The translations under genes were made by a program, and so were the position numbers. From an uncultured bacterium (GTDB lineage: Bacteria; Margulisbacteria; WOR-1; CAVSGV01): DNA of 64,000 nucleotides. The stretch lies in contig CAVYHE010000003.1 in NCBI GenBank assembly GCA_963768305.1, forward strand, positions 256,001 to 320,000, written 5' to 3'. This document shows positions 7,981 through 64,000 of the stretch, in pieces. A model generated the notes under the pieces. It was given only the letters and a program-made list of their open reading frames with translations, ran no database searches and was not told where the DNA came from. Numbering within the stretch: the stretch's first letter is position 1; each line of letters starts with the position of its first letter.

Positions 7981-7986
7981 TATTCA

Positions 7987-8133
7987 GCCTGCCGTACTCG
8001 GGGTTTGCCAAATTGTCTTGAACCAAATTTTATGAATTGGGAGTCTGATGCAAAGGCGACAGTTTCGCCCAAGAAAGACACCCACTTTGGATCTAAGGAT
8101 TCAAAGACACACATGGCCAACGGTACGGCGGGT
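7987..8133 (+). ncRNA. ssrS: 6S (SsrS)-like RNA
   Basis: Closing stem GCCTGCCGTAC/GTACGGCGGGT followed by a T-run; internal CTTGAACC...GGGAG...CCCAC...TTCAA elements; consensus promoter directly upstream. Confidence 0.7.
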
Positions 8134-8143
8134 TTTTTAATGA

Positions 8144-41140: not shown

Positions 41141-42673
41141 CTACTTCTTGTCAAGGGCTATCAAAGTTCGCCCCGTCATTTCTTTCGGCTGTTTAATGGA
41201 AAGGAGCTGAAGGATCGTCGGCGCGATGTCGGCCAGTATGCCGTTATCCCTGAGACGAGCCTTGATATCATCTGAAACAATGATGAAAGGGACCCTGTTG
41301 CACGTGTGGGCGGTCCAAGGGCCTTTTGTCTCATAATTGTATTTTTGTTCGGCGTTCCCGTGGTCGGCTGTGATGAGCGTTATTCCGCCCTGTTTTTTTA
41401 CAGCGTCCGCCACTCTTCCAACGCACTTGTTCACTGTCTCCACCGCCTTGATGGTCGCATCCAGCATACCGGAGTGGCCTACCATGTCGCAATTGGCGTA
41501 ATTCATCATTATCACGTCGTATTTTCCGCTTTCGATCTCCTTTATCACGCGGTCTGTGACTTCTGGCGCGCTCATTTCAGGTTTAAGGTCATATGTCGCC
41601 ACTTTCGGGGAAGGAAGAAGTATCCTGTCCTCATTTGGGAACGGTTTTTCGACTCCGCCGTTGAAGAAGAACGTAACATGCGCGTATTTTTCCGTTTCGG
41701 CGATGCGCAGCTGTTTCTTTCCGTTTTTGCTCAAAACATCGGCCAGAATATTTTTCAGTTCCTGCGGAGGGAACGCAACAGGCGCCTTGATCGTCACGTC
41801 ATACTGCGTCAGGCAGACGAAATGGGTTTTCGGATGGATTTTTCTTGTGAAACCGTCAAAGGGATCGTCGGTGAAGCATCTGGTTATTTCCCTCGCCCTG
41901 TCGCCCCTGAAATTGAAAAAGATCACAGAATCATTATCGGATATCGTAGCGCCGCCTTTTATGACGATCGGTTTTATGAACTCGTCGGTTTCTTTCCTGT
42001 CGTACGCGTTCTGCATTGCCTGGATAGGATCAGATCCCTCAACCCCTGCTCCACTTGTCATCGCGTCATACGCCTGCGAAACTCTCTCCCATCTCTTGTC
42101 GCGGTCCATGGCGTAGTATCTTCCGATGATCGTTGCGATCTTCCCGGTGCCAAGTTCTTTCATTTTCTTCTGCAGTTCCTCGATATAACCTTTTCCGCTT
42201 TCGGGCGGCGTGTCCCTTCCGTCCATGAAGCAGTGGACATATACATTATTGATGTTGTTTCGTTTGGCGAAGTCGAGGAGCGCGTAGAGGTGTTTGTTGT
42301 CGCTATGTACGCCGCCGTCGGAGAGAAGTCCCATTATATGAAGGTTCGACTTATTTTTTTTAGCGTTGCCGACAGCGCCGAGGAGGACTTTATTCCTGAA
42401 AAAATCGCCGTCTTTTATCGATTTGGTAATTCTTGTCAATTCCTGATAAACGATGCGGCCCGCGCCGATATTAAGGTGGCCCACTTCAGAGTTGCCCATT
42501 TGGCCTTCCGGCAGGCCGACGGATTCGCCGGAGCATCCGAGCGTTGTGGATGGATATTTTTTCGCGAGGTTATTGACGGTCTGGTCTTTGCAGAGTTTGA
42601 TCGCGTTAAAGTCCGAGCTTTCTCTCACTCCCCAGCCGTCCATTATTATCAATACGAGCGGTTTGTTTGGCAT
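41141..42673 (-). CDS. gpmI: BPG-independent phosphoglycerate mutase
   Basis: MDGWG, QMGNSEVGH, DMVGH, TADHGNAE. Confidence 0.95.
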   Translation of the reverse strand: MPNKPLVLIIMDGWGVRESSDFNAIKLCKDQTVNNLAKKYPSTTLGCSGESVGLPEGQMGNSEVGHLNIGAGRIVYQELTRITKSIKDGDFFRNKVLLGAVGNAKKNKSNLHIMGLLSDGGVHSDNKHLYALLDFAKRNNINNVYVHCFMDGRDTPPESGKGYIEELQKKMKELGTGKIATIIGRYYAMDRDKRWERVSQAYDAMTSGAGVEGSDPIQAMQNAYDRKETDEFIKPIVIKGGATISDNDSVIFFNFRGDRAREITRCFTDDPFDGFTRKIHPKTHFVCLTQYDVTIKAPVAFPPQELKNILADVLSKNGKKQLRIAETEKYAHVTFFFNGGVEKPFPNEDRILLPSPKVATYDLKPEMSAPEVTDRVIKEIESGKYDVIMMNYANCDMVGHSGMLDATIKAVETVNKCVGRVADAVKKQGGITLITADHGNAEQKYNYETKGPWTAHTCNRVPFIIVSDDIKARLRDNGILADIAPTILQLLSIKQPKEMTGRTLIALDKK

Positions 42674-42754
42674 TTGTTAAATGATAGTAGGAAAAATGGA
42701 ATTAGTAAAGCGAGAGATGAGAGATGAGGATTCTTGAAGTCACAAATTGTGACT

Positions 42755-43145
42755 TCAAGTTATCAAAAATCCCATATTATGCTTCCTGGTTGACCGCTCG
42801 ATGGTCAACTTGCGTATATCTCGCACCAATTCGCTGATGTTCGCGTCGTGCTTGAAGACGCGCTTTTCGAGCTGTTCTATCTTATGAGCAAGCGCTTGAT
42901 TGCCGGCTATCATCTGCCTCAGACGGATAAAAGCCCTCATTATCGCGACATTCACATACACGGCTCTTTTGCTACGAAGCACCCCTGACAACATGGCCAC
43001 TCCCTGTTCAGTAAAGGCTAAAGGAAGATATCTGGAGCCGCCCCAACTTGAGGTGTAATTTTTGCACCTCAAGATCTCATTGAATTCTTCCTTGCTCAAC
43101 TGGAACATAAAGTCGTCGGGAAATCGATCGATAGTTCCTTTTTTT
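42755..43145 (-). pseudogene. 5'-truncated ORF6N domain gene
   Basis: (KRN)IDRFPDDFMFQLSKEEF...WGG.RYLP.AFTEQGVAMLSGVLRS; similarity stops near 43145 at CCCTTAT-type low-complexity repeats. Confidence 0.8.
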
Positions 43146-43220
43146 TCTATCCCCTTATCCCTATATTCCCTTATCCCCTACCCCCTGCTTTATGCTACAA
43201 TTCCTCCGAGGTGATGCTTT

Positions 43221-43445
43221 ATGAACAAGGCTCAAACGCTCGTCCTCTGGATCGCAGGTCTTCTGATCACTGGGATCTTTTGCAACACAGGTCTTAATCT
43301 TCTCAGGCATGCGGCAGCGAACAAAGAACTGCTTGAAACGGGATATCCTTTCACGGTTGTTATTGGGACGGCCTGGACCTTCATCGCGCCGATAATAATT
43401 GTAGGAGTATTACTGGCGGTTTCGTTGAAGGGGCATGAGAAATAA
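43221..43445 (+). CDS. Small two-TM hypothetical protein
   Basis: GAGGTG RBS; two hydrophobic segments. Confidence 0.6.
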   Translation: MNKAQTLVLWIAGLLITGIFCNTGLNLLRHAAANKELLETGYPFTVVIGTAWTFIAPIIIVGVLLAVSLKGHEK

Positions 43446-43488
43446 AGAGATCACGATACAACTCAAAAATAAAAGGTGACATTTTCGT

Positions 43489-44121
43489 ATGAGTAATATA
43501 ATTTCATTTTTCAGCTTATTCGTAGCCATTGCTTCATTTTTTAGGGATAAGATTTTTGAGAACTTTAAGCCTGCATTAAAAATCGAAGCACAAAATAGAT
43601 CTCCGGATTGCGTAAAAACCCCCTTTTATACTCCCGATAGAGTCGTGAAAATTGATGGATATCAATTTCGCATAAGAATTATCAATGATAGTAAACAAGA
43701 AGCTACAAGAGTGAGGGTGACGGCAGAAAGGCTTGAGAAAATGGTTAATGGTAGTTTTGTTGCCGATAATAATTTTATCCCCTTATTTTTATTTTGGACC
43801 CATCATAGGACGACGGAAGTAAATATTTATAGTGAAACATATGCTTTTTGTGACTTTGGTATCATATATCACCCGCAAGGCCGCTTCGAAATTTATGGGG
43901 ACGATCCGACGCTACCTACAATATTGGAATTAGATACGACAGTAAAACCTTTCACAAAGAGCAATCTTATTCCACCAGGCAAATACTGGTTGACGATCAA
44001 AGTGTCGGGGTCAAATATTAAGCCTACAATCAAAAAGATTATTATTGATAACAGTGGGAAATGGTTTGACGATGAACGGGAAATGTTAATTCAAGGTACA
44101 ACAATTAAGGTTTTGGATTAG
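43489..44121 (+). CDS. Hypothetical protein, N-terminal TM anchor
   Basis: 210-aa AT-rich ORF with an RBS-like AAGGTG. Confidence 0.7.
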   Translation: MSNIISFFSLFVAIASFFRDKIFENFKPALKIEAQNRSPDCVKTPFYTPDRVVKIDGYQFRIRIINDSKQEATRVRVTAERLEKMVNGSFVADNNFIPLFLFWTHHRTTEVNIYSETYAFCDFGIIYHPQGRFEIYGDDPTLPTILELDTTVKPFTKSNLIPPGKYWLTIKVSGSNIKPTIKKIIIDNSGKWFDDEREMLIQGTTIKVLD

Positions 44122-44164
44122 TATTGCTCGTTTATGTTTTTTGTCTCAACACTCTATACATGCG

Positions 44165-44377
44165 TCATTTCAATCTTTCCCATATTTGTAAAACGAATCC
44201 TAATATAAGCAGAATGATTCCGGGCCAAAATACATACAAATTAATTATAGCAAAAGGGATGTTTATCGTATGCCACAAAAAATGACAGCCGGTTTCATAA
44301 GCCCCTGTGTTTTCAGAAACTGAAAAAGCAATAAATATACTTCCCAAAAAGTTTAAGATTAAACCTACTAAACCCAT
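44165..44377 (-). CDS. Small membrane hypothetical protein
   Basis: Hydrophobic GLILNFLGS...LGFVLQ pattern. Confidence 0.5.
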   Translation of the reverse strand: MGLVGLILNFLGSIFIAFSVSENTGAYETGCHFLWHTINIPFAIINLYVFWPGIILLILGFVLQIWERLK

Positions 44378-44452
44378 TTTATTGATTCGCTTTCTGCGCT
44401 CCCAAATAAATAGTATTCATATTTTGTGATTTCATTTATTGATGAAGTAAAA

Positions 44453-45378
44453 TGGGATTAAAGCCCCCTCCTCGAACTGTCAGCATCATTCTACAGAATA
44501 CAATTCATGGGTGCAAGAAGCTGAATCTGGGCCGTTCAGGATGATCATCAGATACTGTGAACTAACCTGGGAACTTCACAGTATCCCTTTATGCTCGACT
44601 GGAGCACACAGGCACGCACGCACGGGCGCAGGAGGCGCGGCCAGGCGCAAACCAGATTAGATATTTTATTAATTAACACAAGACAGATACATTCAAACAG
44701 TTGATAGACAGATGTTGCTCTTTAGCGTGAGAGAATAGACAGAGGATCAATGACGTTGGATACGAACACAAATGAGAGACAGAAGAACCTAACCCAATGA
44801 GTTGAAGACACGCTGGGAGCTTGAAGTTATTGCCGCTCAACTCCACCAAAGGAGCTTCTGGGATCCCCGAAAAGAAGACGCTACATTGCTGGCCTGCACG
44901 AATAACCATTCGGCTTGTGGCTCTTGCTGAATATGTTGATGACAGCTGCCGGCGCATAGAAAAAGAGCGACGGGTATTCGCAATCGTCATAGATAACCAA
45001 GCTGGTCGGACTGCTCTAACTGGTCGTTTCCAGAGAGGAATTAAGGCTTTGCTTGAACCTCCTCAAGTGATCGTTCGTTGTGTTCCTGTGTTGCCTTCTC
45101 CGTGGTCCCGCCAAAGGAGAATGACCTCTCCTTCGCTCTTCGAGCTACGAAGGGCTGGCAATTAAGGTGTGCTACGCACATTTGAAAGGGAAAGACCATA
45201 ATTCCTGCTCCGCCTTCGGCGGTATTTAACTTCGTGTCTTGCCGCCCGCCAATCCTTCGACAAGCTCAGGACAAGTGCCCGCCAAAAAAGAACCAAAGCT
45301 CCTGCTCCGACTTCGTCGGTATTTGACTTCGTGTTGTGCCGCCGCCCGCCAAACCTCTCCCAAAATGATGGTGGGGGA
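44453..45378 (+). repeat. Long inverted repeat, left copy (LIR-A), non-coding
   Basis: Aligns end to end with the reverse complement of 61048-61967. Confidence 0.95.
44551..44585. other. 35-bp palindromic site with an asymmetric core, in LIR-A
   Basis: GATACTGTGAACTA-ACCTGGG-AACTTCACAGTATC. Confidence 0.8.
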
Positions 45379-45445
45379 AAAACCTGGCACGTCATACTCA
45401 AAAAAAGTGGTGAAAAATGATACTAATTTAAGGCCGAAAAACCAC

Positions 45446-45506
45446 CGGTTATTTCACAGTATCCTATCGGGTATTTCACAGTATCGAGCGGTTAGTTCAC
45501 AGTAAG
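45446..45506 (+). repeat. Three 18-bp direct repeats at 22/21-bp spacing (operator- or iteron-like)
   Basis: CGGTTATTTCACAGTATC (45446), CGGGTATTTCACAGTATC (45468), CGGTTAGTTCACAGTAAG (45489); followed directly by TTGACT-18 bp-CATAAT. Confidence 0.85.
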
Positions 45507-45543
45507 TTGACTTTGTTGGCCACCCAAGACCATAATTCCCCCC

Positions 45544-47016
45544 ATGGCTGAAGAGCTGGAATACTTAACTCTTAATGAGATAAAAGCTTTTCTTAACTCC
45601 ATCGACGATATCCGCGACCGGGCGCTGATAACCCTATTTCTTAACACCGGCCTATTCCTGAACGAAATAACCTCGCTGAAAATTGATTCCGTCGACTGGA
45701 AGAATAAAATTCTGAATGTCCCCGGAAACCGTAAAAGGGCCATTCCTCTCAACGACCAGGTTTTTGATGCGCTTGCCAAATGGTCGAAGGAGCGTCCCTC
45801 GGGCAATATCTCCGAGCTTTTTGTCACAACAAAAGGCGCGCTGAAAGATCTGACCAGCCGCGGCGTAGATTATCTGATTAGAAAATACGCCGATCAAGCA
45901 GGCATCAAAAAAACGGGTCAATCCGCAGATACTTCGCAATACATTCGCAGTCCGGCTTTTCTCCGAAGAACCCTCCGTGGAAAAAGCTTCCGCCATTTTG
46001 GGCATATCCGATCTGGAATCGGTAAATCGCTATATAAGGGCCTCTAAATTGCCGCCGGCCAGGGTAGAGATAACTGAAAATCTTGAGCATATCGATACTC
46101 GCCATCCCCTTGTCAAAGCCGTTTCCAAAATGTTCCCGACAAAACCCAAAGCCGTTAAGCCGACGACCGAAATAAAAGGCCCAATAACTCCCAGCCCCGA
46201 AGAAGTGATCTTCGGAAGGGATAACATAATCGCCGACATAAAAGCCGATATCGCCAAAGGCCAGTCTGTTTTATTGACGGGTCCTCTGGGAATAGGCAAA
46301 ACGCATTTATTGAAGCACATGTTAAAAGTGCTTGGTCCTAATACAATATATATATCATCCCCAACCCCGCTTAAAACCGCCCTGATGCAAATACTCGTAA
46401 AACTTGATCCTGAATGGAATAAGACGCTGAATACAAGAGCTTCAACGAAAGATATAACCGACTATATTGTGAAAGATAAAAGGGGAAAAGCCTCCCGTCC
46501 TGCTTATCGACAATTTAAATAATATCAAGATTTCTGATATTGATCCTGTTTTAAGCTTTTTGAATAACTTCCCCGTACTTGCCGCGGCTGATGAAACAAA
46601 GCCCAAGCTGAAGCAGATATGGTGGCAGCTCAAACAGGTCGCGCTTCCGCCGTTAAATGAAGATGCCTCAAAGGAACTTATCAAATATCTTACGCAGAAC
46701 CTTACTATCAGCGATTATGAAATGCTTGAAACAAGGATATCTGACCCTTTCAAGCGGCCTTCCCATCGCGATCGTAGATATGGTCCGTCAAATAAGTCAT
46801 ATCCGGAAGATTTCAGTTGATGTTATTCGTGATGTTTATCACGAAGCCGGGATTCAATATCGCGACTGGACGATGGTAATAATCTTCATTTACTGGATAG
46901 CCGTCATTTTCAGGTTCCTTGCGCTCGGCACGAAAAGCTATGAGGCGTATTTCCTTGCAGGTTTCGGCGTAACTTTATTGATGATATTAAAAAATGTTAT
47001 GTCAATGTTGAGGTAA
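45544..47016 (+). CDS. Degenerate tyrosine-recombinase catalytic domain + AAA ATPase + C-terminal TM fusion (three apparent frameshifts)
   Basis: RDRAL..LFLNTGL...E, then PQILRNTFA and ILGISD...RY after a shift in the A-run near 45910; Walker A GPLGIGKT, Walker B LLIDN; two terminal hydrophobic helices. Confidence 0.7.
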
Positions 47017-47067: not shown

Positions 47068-47523
47068 ATGACAAGAAGAGAATTTATTGAAAAATGTTTT
47101 GGCAACAAACTTCAGGCAATCCCTTACAGTGAAGGCGACCATTTTAATGCTTTAGAGGAGGTCGAATCGCTACTTACTAAGCAAGGGCTTATTAATTTAG
47201 ATGAGAATGATATTGAGCAAATAACCAGTACAAGCGACAAGTTAGTGGCGATTTCTGCTGAGGCCCACGGAAAACATCGGTCGCACAGACTTGGTCACAA
47301 AATCCTTTCAAACATACCTGATTTCTTTTGGGATAAGAAACCCACAAATGCATTATTTAATATCACGGGAAGTCCCGATATAACACTAAATGAGGTTAAT
47401 GATGTTGCTGAACACATTTACGATTCAGTGAATCCCCACGCGAATATCATTTTTGGCGCGATTATCGATGAAAATAAAACCGATTACTTAAAAGCCACCG
47501 TGATATTCGGCGGCAAAAAATAG
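47068..47523 (+). CDS. Stand-alone FtsZ C-terminal domain protein
   Basis: GLINLDEND (T7-loop-like), NITGSPDITLNEV, ANIIFGAIIDE, ATVI; no GGGTG GTPase domain. Confidence 0.75.
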   Translation: MTRREFIEKCFGNKLQAIPYSEGDHFNALEEVESLLTKQGLINLDENDIEQITSTSDKLVAISAEAHGKHRSHRLGHKILSNIPDFFWDKKPTNALFNITGSPDITLNEVNDVAEHIYDSVNPHANIIFGAIIDENKTDYLKATVIFGGKK

Positions 47524-48114: not shown

Positions 48115-49451
48115 ATGCTCGCACCCACCCATAGCGTATTCGGCATCTTTTTAACGCTGATATTCCTGGCGGTGTTCGGGATTCAGTGGAGCCTGCATTG
48201 GACGATAATTCTTGTTGCCATTTTTGGCTCGATCGTTCCCGACATTGACCATCCCCGTTCCGTCATAGGCAAGCTCTTCCCCTATATCTCCATCCCCTTA
48301 GAGCGCAGATACGGCCATAGAACGATAACCCATTCCTTCATCGGCTGGATAATTTCAACTGTCATTTTTGCTTTTCTTGTCTTGCTTGTAGTTTTGATAT
48401 TTAAATTTGTTTCGATTCTCGGACTTCCGTTTCGGGTTTTATCTTGGGCGGAGTCGAGGGCTTGGCTCCCCGCTGGATAGCCGCATTTTCAATATCTTAT
48501 TTTTCCCACCTGCTTTTGGACATGTTCAACAAGCGCGGCAGCCAGATGTTCTGGCCTAACCTCAGTCGTGATGTTATCCCGAAAAATCCAAAATACCGCC
48601 CTGAATCGGGCTCAAGCGTTGAGCCTTTTATCTTCATTATTCTTTTCATATTGATGCTTTTTGCTTTCCCGATCTCCAAATACGGGATAGCAAGTTCGCT
48701 TCGCTGGCTTATGGCTACTCCCGGCTCCGCCATGCAAGAATTCCAGTCCCTCAAGACCCATTCCTATGTTGATTTCAACGGCTATTACACGGAAACAAAA
48801 GAGCCGCTTGAAGGGACCGCAGAAATACTTGATGTAGACAAAGGACGGCTGGTAGTACTTTATAAGACCAAGATTTACACGTTAAGTGACGCTCTAGCCG
48901 CCGATATAACCGCCTCCCATGTCCGGCTGAAAAGGACGGATATTCCAATTAATATCACGCAGAAGATATTTAAGGATGAAAACCGCGATGAGTTGCTTGC
49001 TCAAATTCCTGCAGGCGCGCTTGTTTCGGGAACAGTTAAGCTCCCGGAAGGAATGGAGCTTCAATTCCCCGCCTTCCCCGGCTCTTATAAGCCAATGGAT
49101 CAGAAAAGCGGGAACCTGATCCTTTTATTCGCCTCAAAAGACCAAATTGAGAAGCTTGCCCTCACGGAAACCTTCGATCTGCTAAAAAGAAAGGACCAGG
49201 CCGACCTCGCCCAGCTGTACGCGCAGGCGGATAAGCTCAAAAGCCAGATATCGGAAGCGGAAACTGGCGGCGGACTAACTCCTTTGGGCCAGGAGCTTAT
49301 GATGAACAAGGATGACATCCAAAAGCAAAAAGCCCAGCTTGCCGATTTGAAAGGCCAGCTTGATGAAATAAATGTTAAAATTGAAGAGCTTCAATTGAAG
49401 ATAAAGGCCAGAAAGTTCGTTTTTTCAGGAGAGGTTTATTTAAGGCAATAA
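48115..49451 (+). CDS. YdjM-like membrane metal-dependent hydrolase with long C-terminal domain and coiled coil; frameshift near 48450
   Basis: M...TH, PDIDH, GHRTITHS, SHLLLDMF; heptad-rich C-terminus. Confidence 0.75.
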
Positions 49452-49462
49452 GGAGGCCTGAT

Positions 49463-49994
49463 ATGAGAAAATTAGTCGTTTATCTTGTAATAATGAGTTT
49501 ATTGTCCCCGCTTATCGGCTCTATTGCTTATGCTTTTGAGTATACCCTCGCCCCAAATGATACTCTTGAAGATCAAATTAATGCCAAAAGGACATGGATA
49601 CAAAGCAAACTATCGCTCCGGATGGCACAATTTCGCTTCCCTTCCTCGGAAGGGTCCAGCCTCAGGGCAAAACGCTCAGTGAATTTCAAACCTATTTAAC
49701 AACCGAACTTGCCAAATATGTGAACAAGCCTCAGCTTGTCGTTTATCTTAACGCCAAGATCGATATATGTCGTTCAGCATAATCTCAAGACGAATCTTTC
49801 AGAGGTAAGGAAGCTAAATCCATTGACAGAAGCTAAAGCATTATGCTGGCGAGGATTACACAAAAGAGATCAAATATGGCGATGTTATAACCGTCGATGT
49901 CGGCATTCAGCCTGATTGGTGGGAAACTAACTGGTACAAGGTCATATCCGCAACGGCTGTGCTCGTAGGAATAGATGCGGCATTAAAGAAATAG
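49463..49994 (+). CDS. Polysaccharide-export (Wza/Poly_export) domain protein, frameshifts
   Basis: Signal peptide, YTLAPNDTL, IAPDGTISLPFLGRV..QGKTLSE, YVNKPQLVV; C-terminal WWETNWYK hydrophobic tail. Confidence 0.65.
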
Positions 49995-50890: not shown

Positions 50891-51463
50891 ATGAGAAAGG
50901 CCAAAAGAATAAAAACCAATACCACAAGCTCAACCATACGAGAGAAGCTTCAAAGTCTTTCAGAAGACGATCTTAGGGTGTCCATAATCATTCCATTACT
51001 ATATGCACTAGGATGCACCGAAGTAAGAGATAATTGTGGCCCTGATGAGAAAGGTAAAGATATTATTTATAGTACTCCTCACTTATTGGGAGCTAATATA
51101 TATGGTGCGGTAATATTAAAAAATGATCGCAACCTCGGATTAGGTAAGATGGACAATTTGCGTTCACAAGCTCTTCGTGCCTTGAATGCATTCGGAAATC
51201 CCAGAGATCCTCGTATTGAAACGAAAGTGCATGAATTAATTTTTGTTACCTCATTTGACATTACAAGTGACGTTAGAGATTTCTTAGTGAAGAATTGTGG
51301 CAGTAATTTTCCAAATATGCATTTTGTTGACGGCGTCAGACTTGAGCTTTTAATAAGAAAAATAATTGATTTGTTCAAGAAACTCACTGGCAGAACATAT
51401 GTCTTCGATATTACCTCCTTTGCGGGAATGTGCGATAAAGTTAGGGAATGTAATTCGGAATAA
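50891..51463 (+). CDS. Restriction-endonuclease-like (Mrr-type) protein
   Basis: E..L...IIPLL.ALG...GPDEKGKDII...AV.LK, FVDG..L. Confidence 0.6.
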   Translation: MRKAKRIKTNTTSSTIREKLQSLSEDDLRVSIIIPLLYALGCTEVRDNCGPDEKGKDIIYSTPHLLGANIYGAVILKNDRNLGLGKMDNLRSQALRALNAFGNPRDPRIETKVHELIFVTSFDITSDVRDFLVKNCGSNFPNMHFVDGVRLELLIRKIIDLFKKLTGRTYVFDITSFAGMCDKVRECNSE

Positions 51464-51466
51464 AAT

Positions 51467-54400
51467 ATGAGTAAACACGGGCAAAACAATCAAAAAGGAG
51501 TATTCGCCCAAAATTGGGCTGCTCTGTCATTGTTTCTCCAATTCTATAAAGATCCGAAGTTTTCGTACATTCAACTTGAACCAAACACTTCGGAAGATTT
51601 TGATCTCGTCTTTAATGATGGGAAAAAGATTGTTTGCGAAACAAAATACAGGATAAAGAAGTTCAATTATGCAGATTTAAAGCTTTTACTTTCAAAGATA
51701 TTGGACCGGAAATCGATATCAGAGCAGGATGAAATATTAATAGTTTGTCGATCTGTTAATGAAACCTTAGCTTCGGATGTCAAAAATATCAGATTCTTTA
51801 ATCGTTTAGAAGAGAAATTCCTAGAGAAGAATTTTAATAAGCAAATGATAGGATTGATTCCAAGGGTTAGTTTTTGGGTTATTAATAAATCGTTACATAA
51901 GGACATTAATTTACCATTAATATCACAAGCAATAAATCTATGGCTTCCCCAACAAGACCTGAAGAAATTTACCGACCATATTATGCAAGATAAAATAATG
52001 CGATTGTCGACGCAAGGAAGAGCGTATAGCCGAAATGATTTTAATAATGAAATCAACAATCTAAATGCATATGTCTTGCAAAGCAGCGATAAGTTCAATA
52101 AAAGGTTAACACGAAAAGAGAAACAATTCAAAATGTTGGAAGACGATGTAAACAGGAACAAAGGGATTAAGTGGGGAACGGCCTCATCATCCGCCATTTC
52201 TGCTCAATGGGATTTAATGTCTTTTGTTTTAACAAAATTAAGGAAGAGAAACGATCTTGATCTCAAGAAATGGGATGATTTGTGGCAACTCAAAAGTGCT
52301 TTTCAGTTTATTTATACCGTTTTCGATATCTTTAAAAATAATATGGGGACTGAACAAAATATGACATATATCCTTGGATATATTCAAAGAGATATCAAGG
52401 GAATACGTGGTTTCTATGGCCATTCGGACTTCTTTAATCATGGAGTTGTTGAGCTTGTGACAAAGATAATTGATGCCCCAAGCGGGCATAAATATCTGAA
52501 AGAAGCATTTGCCATTGTTAAATATCTTATTAATTTCAATAAAGATGAATATTTCTATCTTAAAGATCGCGACCAGGATCGGGGCCAGTGGGAAAAGGAA
52601 GAAATATGTAAGTTAATAACGAAGATATATAAAATTGCCCCCCCTGAGATTAAGGAATCTGTTTTCCAGCTAATTACATCGGGATTTAACCTCACGGAAG
52701 ACGAAGGTGAATTTAGCCATTATGCGCCAAGAGAAGCTTTCGAAATTATCAGGGAGTGGTTAAATGAAGATTTTGTTAATAGAATCACTCCGCTAGTAAA
52801 TATAATTGTAGATCAATATAAAAGGTTTTATAAGAAGTTTGGGAAAAATATTGAATTTAAAGGCTGGGAGCTTATGGGCGGTGGAGTCGGAATCTGGGAG
52901 GGGAATTATCGTGTTTCAGATCGTCATTTTATTGAATATATCTTGTCACCAGCTATCAGAAAATATTATGAATCAAATAAAGCTGCCGGTTGGCAATTAA
53001 TACTAGATAAGTTTATTAGTAAGACAGCACAAGTTAGTTCTCACCAACCTGATTTCTTAAATAGAGCCGTTTTCGATATTGTATGCGAAAGATATGCAGA
53101 AGGAGATGAAAATTCTAATCGCCAAGCTTTCAAGATTCTTAAAGAGTTCATTCTTTCCCCCAAAGGGATTCCACATAAATCCGAACTAATCTATCAGAAC
53201 ATAGATCGCCCAACAATGTCTGACGAAAAGAAATGGAAGCTGGTTAAGATTATGACCGATAAATATGACATTCCTGCCAATCCTTTTATTGAGCCAATAG
53301 TTGCTGGACTAGTAAAGAAAGGGCATCCCAAAGCCAAACAGTTATTAATAGGGTGGTTTATGAACCCGAAATTCTATCCTCGATTCCCTTTTGATGGCAG
53401 ATATATCTCTACAATTAAGGGATTAATTGAAACAAACTTAGATTTATCAATTGATTTATTTAAAATCATAATGCGGAGTGAATATATTAAAACGGCAAAA
53501 TCAGAGCATTATGATGTTTATGATGTTGCAAACATATTATTTGAGATATTGAAAAGAGATTATGTGCAAGGTTTATCCATTATTCGAATGTTGGAATCCG
53601 AGAAGGCATTGAGCATCGATCAACAGATTATCTACACTTATAGCTTATGCAATTATCGTGGGAATGAAGACTCAGATGATTTAAATCTACTTATTAAAGT
53701 GTATGCCGATATTGTTGATCCATTTCTGACAAGGATGCATGATGATATTAATTCTATTAACCATGTATTGACTTTTGATAATAGCAGAGAAGCATTAATA
53801 CAGTTTGCCTCAAGGTTGGCTGCTAAGGGCAAAATCCATGAGGCATTAAGAATAGTTAAAGTCTTTTTAGATGATACCGATCCATATCTACCTTCTAACG
53901 CCCCAGTGGGTTATAAAATTGAATATAATGAACACCAAAGAATCGAAAGAGGAGAAGCGCCACTCACAATTACATCTGTGAGAGGATGGTGTGCGTGGAC
54001 TTTGATGAGATGTTCGGTTTTGTCTGGAAGAGAATACATCCCAATGGTAATTGAATTTACAAAGAAGTTGATTGAAGACAATAACTATTATGTTGTTCAT
54101 TTGGCATGTAATGCATTGGCTCACCTAGCTAGAAACCGTCTGACAGTATTGCCAAAGAATAGTGATATTATGTTCTTTAACGATGATAAGCGAAAAGCTC
54201 TGGAAATGGCAAAAGATGTCGAAAAAATTGCTTTTTCACTCCTAGATAGGTTTGTTGGCTGGCCAACTCCAGTTCAAAAGGCACTTATTAAAGATGTAAT
54301 ATATGTATTTGATAACATTACTCAGCTGAACGAATCAGATGCTACAAAATTAGTTACCAAATTAATAGGCTTGCCGAAGGAGGCCGTTGCAGAATCTGCC

Positions 54401-55096
54401 CCATTATTAATATTCTTTGCTGAAACGAGAAGAGATTGTTATGCAAAATGGAACACATATTATCCAGGATTATATGATGATCTTGGACCTGATAAATATA
54501 ACTCAGACATTTTCAAGAAGATTCTTACTGACACGATTAAATCCTTGATGAAGGATAATCCCAAAAATTGCTTTCGATTTGCCTCCACTTTTGAACACAT
54601 GTTGCGTCATGATGTCGAAAGAAAAGCCGACGCCGAGCAATCTACAAAACTGGGACTGAAATATTTTAGACTTTTGATGGAGCCTTACTCTCATTCAATT
54701 TATAACATTATCTTTCAGGTTATTCAAGATAGGATGAAAAATCCGGATAAATATTTAGATGAATGGTTTTTATTGTTCATAGAATGCTTAAATCTCGAAA
54801 ACAGATACTATGATAATGCGGTTAAAATGGGGAATCTTGAAAAGGTATTTTGGTTTCCTTCTTTCTATCATTCAGATATATTAGAATTAATCTATAAAGG
54901 AATGGGCCAAGATAAATTTATGAGGGCTGCAAAGATATTCTTTAATTTTCCAAAAGGAATGCAACTAGAAGAATCTTCAAAACTTGTTAATATAATTAAA
55001 GAATTATCAAAATCAGATAAAGAAGCGCAAAGGATCATTAAAACTCTAATCAAAAACAATCCTGGTAAATATTGGGATTTAAAAGAGAAGAAGTAA
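51467..55096 (+). CDS. 1209-aa protein: N-terminal Cap4/DUF4297-like nuclease plus long alpha-helical region
   Basis: G..N.KG..AQ...E...EDFDL...ETK at the N-terminus; no Walker A motif seen; intact AT-rich ORF. Confidence 0.65.
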   Translation: MSKHGQNNQKGVFAQNWAALSLFLQFYKDPKFSYIQLEPNTSEDFDLVFNDGKKIVCETKYRIKKFNYADLKLLLSKILDRKSISEQDEILIVCRSVNETLASDVKNIRFFNRLEEKFLEKNFNKQMIGLIPRVSFWVINKSLHKDINLPLISQAINLWLPQQDLKKFTDHIMQDKIMRLSTQGRAYSRNDFNNEINNLNAYVLQSSDKFNKRLTRKEKQFKMLEDDVNRNKGIKWGTASSSAISAQWDLMSFVLTKLRKRNDLDLKKWDDLWQLKSAFQFIYTVFDIFKNNMGTEQNMTYILGYIQRDIKGIRGFYGHSDFFNHGVVELVTKIIDAPSGHKYLKEAFAIVKYLINFNKDEYFYLKDRDQDRGQWEKEEICKLITKIYKIAPPEIKESVFQLITSGFNLTEDEGEFSHYAPREAFEIIREWLNEDFVNRITPLVNIIVDQYKRFYKKFGKNIEFKGWELMGGGVGIWEGNYRVSDRHFIEYILSPAIRKYYESNKAAGWQLILDKFISKTAQVSSHQPDFLNRAVFDIVCERYAEGDENSNRQAFKILKEFILSPKGIPHKSELIYQNIDRPTMSDEKKWKLVKIMTDKYDIPANPFIEPIVAGLVKKGHPKAKQLLIGWFMNPKFYPRFPFDGRYISTIKGLIETNLDLSIDLFKIIMRSEYIKTAKSEHYDVYDVANILFEILKRDYVQGLSIIRMLESEKALSIDQQIIYTYSLCNYRGNEDSDDLNLLIKVYADIVDPFLTRMHDDINSINHVLTFDNSREALIQFASRLAAKGKIHEALRIVKVFLDDTDPYLPSNAPVGYKIEYNEHQRIERGEAPLTITSVRGWCAWTLMRCSVLSGREYIPMVIEFTKKLIEDNNYYVVHLACNALAHLARNRLTVLPKNSDIMFFNDDKRKALEMAKDVEKIAFSLLDRFVGWPTPVQKALIKDVIYVFDNITQLNESDATKLVTKLIGLPKEAVAESAPLLIFFAETRRDCYAKWNTYYPGLYDDLGPDKYNSDIFKKILTDTIKSLMKDNPKNCFRFASTFEHMLRHDVERKADAEQSTKLGLKYFRLLMEPYSHSIYNIIFQVIQDRMKNPDKYLDEWFLLFIECLNLENRYYDNAVKMGNLEKVFWFPSFYHSDILELIYKGMGQDKFMRAAKIFFNFPKGMQLEESSKLVNIIKELSKSDKEAQRIIKTLIKNNPGKYWDLKEKK

Positions 55097-58209: not shown

Positions 58210-58724
58210 TGCTTTGAATTATACGCCCATAAGAAAAGAGAGTAAAGATTAGAAGTTCTTGCTCCCAGCCTTTTCTGTTTTGAATTTTATCCGTCGCTTT
58301 CTGTTGAAAACCACAAAACAGTGTTAATGAAATCGACGGCATCTTCAAGCGAAAACCCCAATTCCATGAGGAATTCGATTTTTCCCATCATTGTTATCAC
58401 CTTTGATTAGTATTATTTTGCTCCCCAGCCTTTCCAGTATAGCATTTTACCGCCTTTTCCCTGTAAAGAGCGCTCACGTTAGGACTTCGTATAAAGCTCT
58501 CTGTCCCGAAAAAATCCTCATCCTTGCGGATTTTTTCGGGGATTAGTTCGCGCTCTCCTCCAGTCGCCCGCCTCCGGCGAGGCTCCTTCCGGCCCTCCGC
58601 TCGTTGCGCTCTCTCGCCCATATATTAGCTTTAGGTAGGCTCAATCGCTCCACTCGCTTCGGGTGACAGGGGCGGTAAAATGCTGTTCCTTCCTATGTTT
58701 TCATTTCATAGGGAGGTGGTTTTC

Positions 58725-61047: not shown

Positions 61048-61967
61048 TCCCCCACCATCATTTTGGGAGAGGTTTGGCGGGCGGCGGCACAACACGAAGA
61101 CAAATACCGCCGAAGGCGGAGCAGGAGCTTTGGTTCTTTTTTAGCGGGCTTTACCCTGAACTTGTCGAAGGATTGGCGGGCGGCAAGACACGAAATTAAA
61201 TACCGCCGAAGGCGGAGCAGGAATTATGGTCTTTCCCTTTCAAATGTGCGTAGCACACCTTGATTGCCAGCCCTTCATAGCTCGAAAAGCGAAGGAGAGG
61301 TCATTCTCCTTTGGCGAGATTACGGAGAAGGCAACACAGGAACACAACAAACGATCACTTGAGGAGTTTCAAGCAAAGCCTTAATTCCTCTCTGGAAACA
61401 ACCAATTAGAGCAGTCCGACTAGCTTGGTTATCTATGACAATTGCGAATACCCATCGCTCTTTTTCTTGCGCTGGCAATGGTCATCAACATATTGAGCAA
61501 GAGCCACAAGCTGAATGGTTATCATGCAGGTTAGAAATTAGCGTCTTCTTTTCAAGGATCTCAAGAGCTTCTTTGGTGAGTTGAGTGGTAATAGCTTCAA
61601 GCTCCCAGCGTATCTTCAACTCATTGGGTTAGGTTCCTCTGTCTCACATTTGTATTCATATCCAATGTCATTGATCCTTCGTCTTTCTTTCACGCTAAAG
61701 AGCAACATCTGTCTATCAACTGTTTGAATGTATCTGTCTTGTGTTAATTAATAAAATATCTAATCTGGTTTGCGCCTGGCCGCGCCTGCTGCGCCCGTGC
61801 GTGCGTGCCTGTGTGCTCCAGTCGAGCATAAAGGGATACTGTGAAGTTCCCAGGTTAGTTCACAGTATCTGATGATCATCCTGAACGGCCCAGATTCAGC
61901 TTCTTGCACCCATGAATTGTATTCTGTAGAATGATGCTGACAGTTCGAGGAGGGGGCTTTAATCCCA
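61048..61967 (-). repeat. Long inverted repeat, right copy (LIR-B)
   Basis: Reverse complement of 44453-45378; the 35-bp palindrome is at 61835-61869. Confidence 0.95.
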
Positions 61968-61983
61968 CATAATTATAGCTGCG

Positions 61984-62016
61984 AACCGCTGTGTTTTCTA
62001 AACCGGCGGTTTTTTC
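61984..62016 (+). terminator. Intrinsic-terminator-like hairpin just outside LIR-B
   Basis: AACCGCTG...CGGCGGTT followed by a T-run. Confidence 0.5.
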
Positions 62017-62121
62017 TTTGCGGGAAATAGCGCGGCGGGCGGCGTTTGCCGCTACCCAAACGCCGCCCGCCGAATGTTCGCCGCGTCGGGACACATTGTT
62101 GTTTTAGATGAGGTTTGAATT

Positions 62122-62919: not shown

Positions 62920-64000
62920 ATGAATAAAATGAAAATTGGCATCTATACCCGCGTTTCCACCGATGGACAGGCCGAAGTGGAGTTCAACTCCTGCGAGGCT
63001 CAGGAAGCCAAGATAAAAGCCTTTATCTCCAGCCAGGACAATATGGAGATATATAAAACATATTCTGACCAGGGTTACAGCGGAGCCGACACTAATCGCC
63101 CCGCCCTTATGGATTTGCTAACGGATATTCGGCAAGGCAGCATAAACTCTGTTATTGCTTATAAGATCGACCGGCTTACAAGGTCGCCGAAGGATTTCTA
63201 TCAGCTTATCGAAGTATTCGAACAGCATGATGTCAGCTTCATATCGGTAACTGAGAGGTTCGATACCTCTACGCCGTCAGGTCGTCTCCTCAGAAATATA
63301 ATGCTTACTTTCGCGCAGTTCGAGCGCGAGCTTATAAGCGAAAGGATAAGGGATAAAATGCTCGAACGCGCGAAAAAAGGGCTCTGGAATTCTGGTATTA
63401 CCCCGCTCGGCTATGGCAGAGAAAATAAGAAACTGATCATCAACGCCAATGAAACTAAGATAGTAAAAACCATCTATGATACCTATTCTAAAACCGGATC
63501 GATGGCTGCTGTATACCATAAGCTAAAAGACCAGGGAATTAGGGGAAGGAACGGCAAGATTTTTCCAAATGTAACATTATCCACAATTTTGAGAAATAGG
63601 CTTTATACCGGCAAGATAACTCATCGCGGCCAAACATATCAGGGCATCCATGAACCGATCATTTCAGAAGAGCTTTTCAGCAAAGTTCAATTGCTTCACA
63701 AGGAAAAGGTTAAAAAGGCGAAGGTTTACAACTATTCCCTTTTCACCGGGCTTGTGAACTGTAAAGAATGCGGTTCAAAAATGACTTTTGTTTTCACTAA
63801 CAAAAGCAGGAAGCAGCCCGGTCCCAAACTGAGGTATTATTATTATCGCTGTACCAGCATTTCAAAAAGGGATTTTTCTGTTTGTTCCACCAGACAGGTG
63901 AGCATGGATCGGCTTGACGATTTTGTCATAGAAAATCTCTCAAGGATCGCCGCCGATCCTAATTATGTCGACAGTTTGATTTTCAGGAACAACCACCCGG
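62920..64000 (+). CDS. Large serine recombinase, truncated by the window end (absent from the ORF track)
   Basis: IYTRVSTDGQ, D.GYSG...RP, KIDRLTRS, FAQFERELISER, later C..CGS.M...YYRC zinc ribbon. Confidence 0.92.
   Translation, partial: MNKMKIGIYTRVSTDGQAEVEFNSCEAQEAKIKAFISSQDNMEIYKTYSDQGYSGADTNRPALMDLLTDIRQGSINSVIAYKIDRLTRSPKDFYQLIEVFEQHDVSFISVTERFDTSTPSGRLLRNIMLTFAQFERELISERIRDKMLERAKKGLWNSGITPLGYGRENKKLIINANETKIVKTIYDTYSKTGSMAAVYHKLKDQGIRGRNGKIFPNVTLSTILRNRLYTGKITHRGQTYQGIHEPIISEELFSKVQLLHKEKVKKAKVYNYSLFTGLVNCKECGSKMTFVFTNKSRKQPGPKLRYYYYRCTSISKRDFSVCSTRQVSMDRLDDFVIENLSRIAADPNYVDSLIFRNNHP

Follow-up and report, generated by a model that had tools for sequence, protein, structure and literature searches.

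A 17-bp word repeated at a promoter and at both ends of a Margulisbacteria island as a candidate docking site for a recombinase-derived Int-AAA protein

In a 64,000-nucleotide stretch of the genome of an uncultured WOR-1 bacterium (assembly GCA_963768305.1, contig CAVYHE010000003.1, positions 256,001 to 320,000; this whole stretch is the window, and coordinates count from its first letter), one short word occurs in two arrangements: as a palindrome in each of two long inverted repeats (LIR-L and LIR-R) of a genomic island, and as three direct repeats in front of a gene whose product combines a tyrosine-recombinase-like domain with a P-loop region (the Int-AAA gene). What reads this word, and is it a site of recombination? 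The first-pass annotation of the stretch proposed a lox-like site, with one protein binding both arrangements. The analysis points, with modest confidence, to another answer: the repeated word would be the core of a 17-bp docking site for the adjacent Int-AAA protein, whose catalytically degraded domain would act as a DNA reader, and it would not be a crossover site. The argument concerns the following features.

44453..45378, + strand: LIR-L, with a conserved outer block of ~90 nt, the site pair, a GC-rich and then an AT-rich stretch, and two + strand terminator-like hairpins.
44551..44585: distal pair of LIR-L, made of half-sites 44551-44567 (GGTTAGTTCACAGTATC on the - strand) and 44569-44585 (GGGAACTTCACAGTATC), with T at 44568 between them.
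45447-45463, 45469-45485 and 45490-45506, + strand: three direct 17-bp sites, just inside the element from LIR-L, the last one abutting the -35 box.
45507..45536, + strand: sigma-70-like promoter, TTGACT-18-CATAAT.
45544..47016, + strand: Int-AAA gene, encoding a XerA-like domain, an AAA+-like P-loop and two C-terminal hydrophobic helices, in three frames in the assembly.
61048..61967, - strand: LIR-R, the inverted counterpart of LIR-L; the three direct repeats have no copy here.
61835..61869: distal pair of LIR-R, the reverse complement of the LIR-L pair and identical to it.

The word is confined to the island. The sequence TTCACAGTA has exactly seven matches in the window (44553-, 44575+, 45453+, 45475+, 45496+, 61837- and 61859+, the sign giving the strand), which are the seven half-sites named by the first-pass annotation, and when one mismatch is allowed there are 16 matches, compared with 7.39 +/- 2.59 in shuffled sequences, none of 100 shuffles reaching 16. 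In the whole assembly (1,532,202 bp in 16 contigs, 86% complete) the 11-mer TTCACAGTATC has six exact matches, all six inside the island, and the backwards control has none, so that the motif is not the common genome-wide site that would have pointed to a host regulator. The palindrome GATACTGTGAACTAACCTGGGAACTTCACAGTATC at 44551-44585 and its inverted copy at 61835-61869 are both present, with 75 of 75 positions identical when the 20-nt flanks are included. The direct repeats, which had been placed at 45446, 45468 and 45489 with a phasing of ~22 bp, agree to within 1 bp with the 17-bp units starting at 45447, 45469 and 45490, and the measured spacing is 22 and 21 bp.

The true unit of recognition is 17 bp long, GGnnAnnTC(A/G)CAnnATC. 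Read on one strand, the left-end sites are GGTTAGTTCACAGTATC and GGGAACTTCACAGTATC in the distal pair and GGTTATTTCACAGTATC, GGGTATTTCACAGTATC and GGTTAGTTCACAGTAAG in the direct repeats. The 35-bp palindrome consists of two such sites placed head to head with a single base between them (17 + 1 + 17), and ACCTGGG is therefore not a separate core: the earlier division into 14-bp arms around an asymmetric 7-bp core has to be given up, as these seven bases are the central base together with the 5' GG..A segment of each 17-bp site. The inner part of each half-site (GGTTA / GGGAA) matches the 5' part of the direct repeats, and the sole free base of the distal pair is the central one, being T, G or C depending on the element.

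The direct repeats adjoin a promoter. The TTGACT..CATAAT boxes, already noted in the first-pass annotation, are the best sigma-70-like match in 44300-45700 (10/12), and the -10 hexamer ends 7 nt ahead of the ATG at 45544, a gap that is equally short in all homologues read. Because of this short spacing the Int-AAA mRNA is probably leaderless; if transcription starts at the ATG, the centres of the three sites fall near -47, -68 and -90. This triple arrangement is also present in one element of the related genome G001 and in both elements of the related genome G004 (G004a and G004b). Among 64 distinct upstream regions of the family, 25 contain a triple repeat scoring above every one of 100 shuffles, and in 19 of these 25 the spacing is exactly 22+21. 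Three repeats abutting the -35 box of an apparently leaderless gene are the promoter layout of the family.

The distal pair belongs to the same conserved architecture. In the G004 and G001 elements a head-to-head pair lies 0.9-1.3 kb upstream of the gene, followed by the three repeats and the promoter, and the flanks of the elements differ; across the family the distal site is found 0.3-4.5 kb upstream, at 0.6-0.95 kb in most loci. When a hidden Markov model of the left-end block is used as the query, 21 loci have a match ahead of the gene and on its strand. Within the block there come first ~90 nt of outer sequence (TCGAAC ... TACCnAATACnATnCAyGGnTGCAAGAAG), then the site pair, then CCCT(A/C)TATAG and, ~10 nt further on, GTACACA.

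The two kinds of site also change together. The core of the repeats differs by lineage (CACAGTAT, CGCAATAT, CCGCAC, TGGCAATAT and others), and the cores of the promoter repeats and of the distal sites covary, as in the change from CACAGTAT to CGCAATAT in locus L085, where the repeats have TTCGCAATATC and the distal arms CGCAAT/CGCAAC; in L037 both distal arms have CGCAACAT. The distal site is present in 19 (the window and 18 loci) of 20 aligned sequences, and in 18 of these 19 both arms carry the core of their lineage. For 12 non-redundant lineages (L044, which is misaligned, was dropped) the distal half-site scores 8.39/10 against the repeats of its own element, compared with 7.18/10 for foreign half-sites. 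The own distal site ranks first, ties included, in 9 of the 12 lineages, and none of 10,000 permutations reaches the observed mean, a figure that overstates independence because the lineages are related. The two arms are also more alike within than between elements (198 of 10,000 permutations). In addition, two paralogues in one metagenome-assembled genome (MAG), L037 and L042, carry different repeats, which argues against a single host factor. Sites that are specific to the element, lie next to the promoter and change with the lineage of the gene are what would be seen for an autoregulated operator. From the covariation, a single element-encoded protein probably binds both arrangements; this part of the earlier proposal stands, and the analogy with lox, FRT and dif that accompanied it is unsupported.

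Could the sites be read by another protein, such as a host regulator, the large serine recombinase of the island or a neighbour with a helix-turn-helix (HTH) domain? The sites of serine recombinases are imperfect palindromes too, and a large serine recombinase gene and an HTH gene are situated just outside LIR-R in the window and in G004b. However, the motif occurs nowhere else in the genome, the elements G004a and G001 keep their sites without a nearby serine recombinase, the odd central base is unfit for a crossover with a 2-bp stagger, and paralogous elements of one MAG carry different motifs. We consider this explanation very improbable. The recombinase-derived domain of the Int-AAA protein is preferred as the reader because it is the only conserved neighbour with a DNA-binding-type domain and because the words of L037 and L042 differ.

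The Int-AAA gene encodes an unnamed Margulisiibacteriota family of ~490 residues, in which a remodelled XerA-like domain without a core-binding domain is followed by a P-loop region and helices. Its first open reading frame (45544-46047) matches Phage_integrase (PF00589) at 2.5e-15, compared with 1.7e-23 for an intact homologue, and the P-loop lies in the next frame; intact homologues of 489 residues in G001 and G004 have 84-85% identity. The protein database holds 46 relatives of 349-542 residues, nearly all with PF00589 and AAA_22/AAA_16, and the few with a named source come from Margulisiibacteriota, candidate division WOR-1 and Patescibacteria. Public genomes hold 16 loci (14 labelled Margulisiibacteriota, WOR-1, Saganbacteria or just MAGs) and metagenomes 78; 15 of 41 related genomes (G000 included) match at E <= 1e-20, the rest matching only with ordinary Xer-type genes. 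PADLOC, PHROGs, NCBIfam and the ESM Atlas offer no name beyond 'integrase', and literature searches on tyrosine-recombinase/AAA fusions and on mobile elements of Margulisbacteria brought up no paper about the family. As a known defence system the protein was also rejected, as PADLOC gives only a weak P-loop match (mad8, 2.5e-5) and nothing for its two conserved partner genes, described below.

Residues 3-167 correspond to positions 92-255 of the archaeal XerA model of NCBIfam (107.7 bits, under the model cut-off of 220), and the AlphaFold model (pLDDT 72.7) superimposes on XerA (5hxy_D, by Foldseek) with a root-mean-square deviation of 1.7 over 164 columns; the fold of the catalytic domain is present. 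The core-binding (SAM-like) domain is absent, as the protein begins 3-7 residues before the catalytic domain and has no PF02899-type match. The alignment with a XerD-like protein and 44 homologues, and then with 21 more distant homologues, shows a remodelled active site. Arg-I is replaced by Phe (F38, nearly invariant in the 44 sequences; F, Y, T or L in 20 of the 21 distant homologues, with Arg only in L043), Lys-beta by Arg, His-II by Gln in the window protein (Q, H, R, K or L across the homologues) and His/Trp-III by Ile at position 154 (I, L or V in all 21 distant homologues). All 44 + 21 homologues have Arg-II and the nucleophile Tyr without exception, and none of the 44 departs from the Glu that follows Arg-I. 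The catalytic set of active tyrosine recombinases (Arg-I, Lys-beta, His-II, Arg-II, His/Trp-III and Tyr) is thus incomplete, and to our knowledge Arg-I is essential in all tyrosine recombinases that have been studied.

In the middle part of the protein the Walker A motif GPLGIGKT is invariant, and at the Walker B position the sequence is hhhhDN, with D322 invariant and N323 almost invariant, in place of DE/DD. Pfam matches AAA_22 above and AAA_16 below the cut-off in intact homologues, and Foldseek returns NLR NB-ARC, RuvBL and RFC structures with low TM-scores, which is a loose AAA+/STAND resemblance. The last two helices (442-462 and 465-488) are hydrophobic and are read as a putative membrane hairpin.

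If the palindromes were lox/FRT/dif-like pairs, the recombinase-like protein would invert the 15.7-kb segment between them and regulate itself at the direct repeats. Two identical, inverted sites, the tyrosine-recombinase catalytic fold with its Tyr, Arg-II and Glu after Arg-I, and the covariation of the site types are in agreement with this explanation. It is opposed by the four replacements (Phe for Arg-I, Arg for Lys-beta, Gln for His-II, Ile for His/Trp-III), by the missing core-binding domain and by the 17+1+17 geometry, in which the inner bases are conserved as in the direct repeats and no free spacer of 6-8 bp is left. The long inverted repeats add to these objections. LIR-L and LIR-R are 93.8% identical over 926 aligned positions, and 99% in the outer 283 bp that hold the site pair; they are the only two copies in the genome. 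The palindromes are inverted relative to each other because both sit inside this 0.9-kb inverted repeat, and it is possible that homologous recombination between the LIRs inverts the segment, for which the motif is not needed.

A duplicated, inverted copy of the distal block at the far end is found in five of the six elements with enough context: the window, G004b (921 bp, 99%, 16.6 kb apart), G001 (640 bp, 92.5%, 13.6 kb apart), and G012 and G016, where the second copy of the upstream block is 33 and 37 kb away. In G004a the second arm was not found within 60 kb. G012 and G016 are genomes of another family, and their protein is 59% identical to P0002, the G004 homologue, and 62-63% to the N-terminal piece of the window protein. 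Around their distal site, 51-52 of 52 nt are identical in all four copies, and the whole repeats are 85-89% identical. Judged from these 52 nt and from the outer 283 bp of the window repeats, the distal site is under extra constraint at both island ends. Many short-read contigs begin 230-400 bp ahead of the Int-AAA gene, which would fit a repeat that ends there.

Of the elements just described, G004a has one arm and the clade of G012 and G016 one recognisable half-site, which speaks against inversion by a lox-type reaction. The orientation relative to the serine recombinase is the same in the window and in G004b, in a comparison of low power for which few relatives are suitable. In G012 and G016 the gene-distal copy of the repeat adjoins the same flank in both, and the near flanks are unrelated. 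The only public sequencing run with any of the stretch, at 5% of the sampled words, yields seven contig pieces (44763-44931 and 45164-45954), which miss the palindrome, contain no joints and do not bear on inversion. Orientation variants were not encountered, in material that is hardly suited to reveal them. With key catalytic residues, core-binding domain and spacer absent, and with a single-armed relative, the proposed lox-type inversion is not borne out, and we regard it as improbable.

The inverted, well conserved ends could also mean that the sites are used for DNA handling, and the genes that accompany them have to be considered here. The Int-AAA gene and two others are the only genes kept beside the sites, and a DNA-binding-type domain is present in the Int-AAA protein alone.

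48115..49451, + strand: YdjM-like membrane protein with a long C-terminal extension, second gene of the trio, in two frames.
49463..49915, + strand: remains of a Poly_export/SLBB-like gene, third gene of the trio, in three short frames, with DNA similarity to G004a and G004b.
62920..64000, continuing to 64380, + strand: large serine recombinase, at the tRNA-Arg end of the island.

The YdjM-like protein (430-460 residues) is encoded in all three close elements and in 8 of 9 distant loci, and the Poly_export/SLBB-like protein (176-209 residues; its Pfam matches are those of intact homologues, not of the window pieces) in all three close elements and in 7 of 9 distant loci. All three proteins of the trio are read as membrane or envelope proteins. 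It can be imagined that the membrane ATPase, together with its two partners, binds the end pairs and joins, tethers, nicks or transfers DNA, the ends being comparable to an oriT or to transposon ends. This would be consistent with the distal block at both ends in inverted orientation in five of six elements (not G004a), with the better conservation of the site region than of the rest of the repeat, with the invariant CCCT(A/C)TATAG..GTACACA after the distal site, with the invariant Tyr and Arg-II, and with the conservation of the trio as membrane or envelope proteins. A precedent is MpsA of SGI1, a protein of tyrosine-recombinase fold that is proposed as an atypical relaxase at an oriT rich in inverted repeats beside its gene (PMC6414798). 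On the other hand, Arg-I is missing, whereas MpsA retains its catalytic residues; domain scans of the island detect no relaxase, coupling protein or transposase family; the LIR ends have no target-site duplication or att repeat; the island was apparently placed at tRNA-Arg by the serine recombinase; and the three promoter-proximal repeats are better explained by regulation. We therefore consider DNA handling at the ends unlikely, though it keeps a real share of the probability since the invariant Tyr and Arg-II allow some DNA chemistry. A bolder form, that the trio, with the YdjM-like protein as a membrane hydrolase, is an undescribed membrane-bound DNA-handling machine of Margulisiibacteriota, is doubtful. 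Such a machine would read the end pairs and then pair, tether, nick or export DNA, its remodelled pocket (an aromatic residue for Arg-I, with Tyr and Arg-II kept) would perform a new reaction, and the promoter repeats would act as a feedback sensor; if this is true, the islands would represent a new class of mobile defence island.

The direct repeats also invite comparison with an origin of replication. In an integrated plasmid-like element the AAA+ protein might be the initiator, the repeats iterons, and the GC-rich/AT-rich stretch the region of unwinding. Three 17-bp direct repeats in 22+21 phasing do adjoin the gene of a P-loop protein, the AT-rich sequence following the GC-rich stretch past the distal pair is conserved in close relatives, and plasmid Rep systems use one site in direct and inverted copies. 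Yet the protein matches no Rep or initiator family in Pfam, NCBIfam or PHROGs and has a putative membrane anchor, the promoter next to the repeats is 0.9 kb away from the AT-rich sequence, cargo genes can separate the distal site from the repeats (L032, L037), and the distal block is duplicated at the far end. The search of 2.9 million viral contigs, in which plasmid collections were not included, gave no relatives. An iteron-type origin is decidedly improbable. A viral origin was set aside on the same search.

What, then, would the Int-AAA protein do at its sites? In the docking-site proposal, the XerA-type domain, having lost key catalytic residues, would be a sequence-specific DNA-binding module, joined in the same chain to an AAA+/STAND-like nucleotide switch and, at the C-terminus, to an anchor in the membrane. 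The three in-phase sites, two helical turns apart, may serve as an autoregulatory operator of the Int-AAA gene; activation would be likelier than occlusion, because the sites abut the core promoter but leave it uncovered. The head-to-head pair ~0.9 kb upstream could be a second, dimer-type binding place, by which the protein might mark or control both ends of the island, either through control of inward transcription from the adjacent TATA-like box or by holding the island ends at the membrane. The sites themselves, with their phasing and confinement to the island, the layout common to the family, the covariation of the two site types and the remodelled active site are observed; the identity of the binder, the direction of regulation and the role of the distal pair are what we infer from them.

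Several observations weigh against this proposal. No triple repeat above the shuffles is found in 39 of the 64 family upstream regions, and in L032 the own distal site mismatches the own upstream region (rank 7 of 12); the relatedness of the lineages, mentioned above, also weakens the permutation figures. In the clade of G012 and G016 only the right half-site of the distal site is recognisable. Neither the window nor L031 or L057 shows a consensus sigma-70 promoter at the distal pair, and the TATA-like box beside it is degenerate in the window (TTTATG) and has no -35 box. The invariance of Arg-II and Tyr leaves DNA chemistry possible. Finally, the window copy of the gene has single extra bases near 45906, 46475 and 46740 when compared with three intact 489-residue homologues.

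The last point depends on the quality of the assembly. The extra base at 45906 is absent from the contig of a close relative in a public run. Within the next 16 kb GAPDH is broken into three pieces, FtsW/RodA, M24 peptidase, DHquinase II and phosphoglucomutase into two each, and PGK lacks its N-terminus; within the island the YdjM-like (two pieces) and Poly_export-like (three pieces) genes are split as well. The frame-broken stretches are 48115-49915 of the window and, on the window scale, 65278-79536. Since housekeeping genes show the same damage, the Int-AAA gene is not called a pseudogene, and that reading was set aside; its three frameshifts are not distinguishable from assembly errors, and assembly indels are the simplest reading. 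Single-base indels appear to be frequent in this assembly, and 'pseudogenes' in this genome need careful reading.

The LIRs contain further elements. Two + strand terminator-like hairpins (45205-45222 and 45307-45319), conserved in G004b, lie ahead of the triple repeat and would end a rightward transcript inside LIR-L; a plain transcript stopping at these hairpins is possible. A structured RNA gene was considered and rejected: Rfam (E <= 1) gives no matches in 44300-45600, RNAalifold of eight homologous copies of the 330 nt after the pair gives -7.6 kcal/mol over 409 columns and hardly any consensus pairing, and the fold of 44596-44700 has z = -1.7. A micro-ORF with a good AGGA ribosome-binding site is located at 44750-44800 of LIR-L and mirrored in LIR-R. 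Its length is 16 codons in the window, after a TGA common to both arms, as against 24 in the two G004 elements (G004a and G004b). The encoded peptide, M-T/M-L-D-M-N-T-N-R/K-R-Q-K-N-L-T-Q-R-V..., is conserved; the micro-ORF is deleted in G001, L048 and L085. Inspection of the LIR alignment reveals no direct repeat at the LIR ends, and the tRNA-Arg end shares no word of at least 11 nt with 42650-44470 on either strand, as would be expected of an att or target-site repeat. A second inverted repeat (132 bp, 99%) links 61965-62095 to 64224-64355, its right arm lying past the window end. The left arm starts from the outer end of LIR-R, and the right arm falls within the final ~50 codons of the serine recombinase and has its end at the 3' CCA of tRNA-Arg; a 171-residue open reading frame, the HTH gene and most of the recombinase gene are enclosed. 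The counterpart in G004b is 197 bp long and 97% identical.

The whole island (~42711-64352, 21.6 kb) lies between gpmI and tRNA-Arg(TCG), beside pgk and gap. The large serine recombinase is probably its integrase and apparently inserted the island beside tRNA-Arg; with this gene at the tRNA end, the LIR-bounded unit is regarded as nested in a serine-recombinase island. In G001, gpmI and tRNA-Arg(TCG) are 436 bp apart, a near-empty site. The tRNA-Arg(TCG) gene (64352-64426 on the window scale) forms the right border; 0.8 kb further, at 65227-65263, there is a 37-bp copy of its 5' half, and the two flank a 211-residue open reading frame without a family. A 6S RNA at 7983-8138 (RF00013, 61.6 bits) confirms the context of a bacterial chromosome.

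The cargo between and after the trio genes varies and includes type IIG restriction enzymes, GmrSD, AbiEi/Eii, Schlafen-AlbA2, HD, Bro-N, PD-(D/E)XK and M78 peptidase genes. In L032, L033, L035, L036, L037, L040 and L042, HD, DUF2254, Bro-N, AbiEi/AbiEii, Schlafen-AlbA2 and SEC-C genes occupy the same two positions, which behave as cargo hotspots within the operon. Recurrent in these islands (47068-47523, and L025:1033-1476 in G004b) is a small gene for the FtsZ C-terminal domain alone (PF12327, 5e-15), the product of which could be a decoy or modulator of cell division. At 50891-55096, among restriction-enzyme fragments and in the island part with the lowest GC content (35%), a gene pair encoding proteins of 190 and 1209 residues goes unmatched in Pfam, NCBIfam, PADLOC and PHROGs; it may be a candidate for a role in defence. 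A non-coding stretch of 145 bp (58414-58559) upstream of a DprA-like gene, containing a hairpin followed by a T run, is 92-97% identical among the window, G004a and G004b, compared with ~80% in its surroundings.

The Int-AAA family marks a recurrent type of Margulisiibacteriota island, with inverted repeats of ~0.6-0.9 kb, a fixed trio and changing defence-like cargo. Its site code is readable from covariation across an uncultured phylum, and knowledge of the control sites offers a first way into the regulation or movement of these islands. The locus also teaches that a palindrome beside a recombinase-like gene is insufficient for calling a lox site. If the docking-site proposal is true, this would be the second independent case, after TnsF, of a tyrosine-recombinase domain turned into a catalysis-free sequence reader, here as part of a single polypeptide that also contains an ATPase switch and a membrane anchor.

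The fusion and its site layout occur in none of the following systems: TnsF, iterons and operators, membrane-anchored or STAND regulators, and MpsA. TnsF of the Tn6022-like Tn7 elements is described as a catalytically inactive tyrosine-recombinase derivative that selects the DNA target (PMC10293859). Both are cases in a mobile element in which catalysis is lost and the recombinase-derived domain is kept for sequence recognition; TnsF differs in having zinc fingers, two core-binding-like domains, a separate TnsABC and the host target comM. The Int-AAA protein has only the catalytic-type domain, its own fused ATPase and sites on the element, and no Tn7 genes are detected in the island. MpsA keeps its catalytic residues and needs MpsB and a helper plasmid (PMC6414798). 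It resembles the present case by a recombinase-fold gene beside a cis site rich in inverted repeats on a mobilisable island; the Int-AAA protein has a remodelled active site and, in addition, an ATPase region and a putative membrane anchor, and its cis block occurs twice in inverted orientation. TcpM and MobK are further atypical relaxases that resemble tyrosine recombinases.

The core sites of tyrosine recombinases (loxP, FRT, dif) have inverted arms of 11-13 bp around a spacer of 6-8 bp. With Cre, Flp, XerCD and XerA the Int-AAA protein shares the XerA catalytic fold, Tyr and Arg-II, and an inverted pair among its presumed sites. In contrast with loxP/Cre, FRT/Flp and dif/XerCD, the half-sites are 17 bp long and surround one base, the core-binding domain is absent, Arg-I, Lys-beta, His-II and His/Trp-III are replaced, the site is also present as a promoter triple, and an ATPase and a putative membrane anchor follow the domain in the same protein. 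In plasmid Rep/iteron systems direct repeats serve one function and inverted repeats of the same word another, and common to both is one word that recurs in phased direct repeats and in an inverted arrangement next to the gene of the presumed binder; the Int-AAA protein is, however, unrelated to the Rep families, and here it is the direct repeats that adjoin the promoter, with the inverted pair far away, the reverse of the classical layout. The membrane-anchored regulators ToxR and CadC and the STAND regulators AfsR and MalT act at phased direct repeats upstream of the -35 box. The Int-AAA protein differs from these by its recombinase-derived fold instead of a winged helix or HTH, by a C-terminal helical hairpin with no visible sensor, and by the second, inverted site pair at both ends of a mobile island; it resembles them in the combination of a DNA-binding domain with an anchor or a STAND-like NTPase in one chain, and in the phased repeats beside the -35 box.

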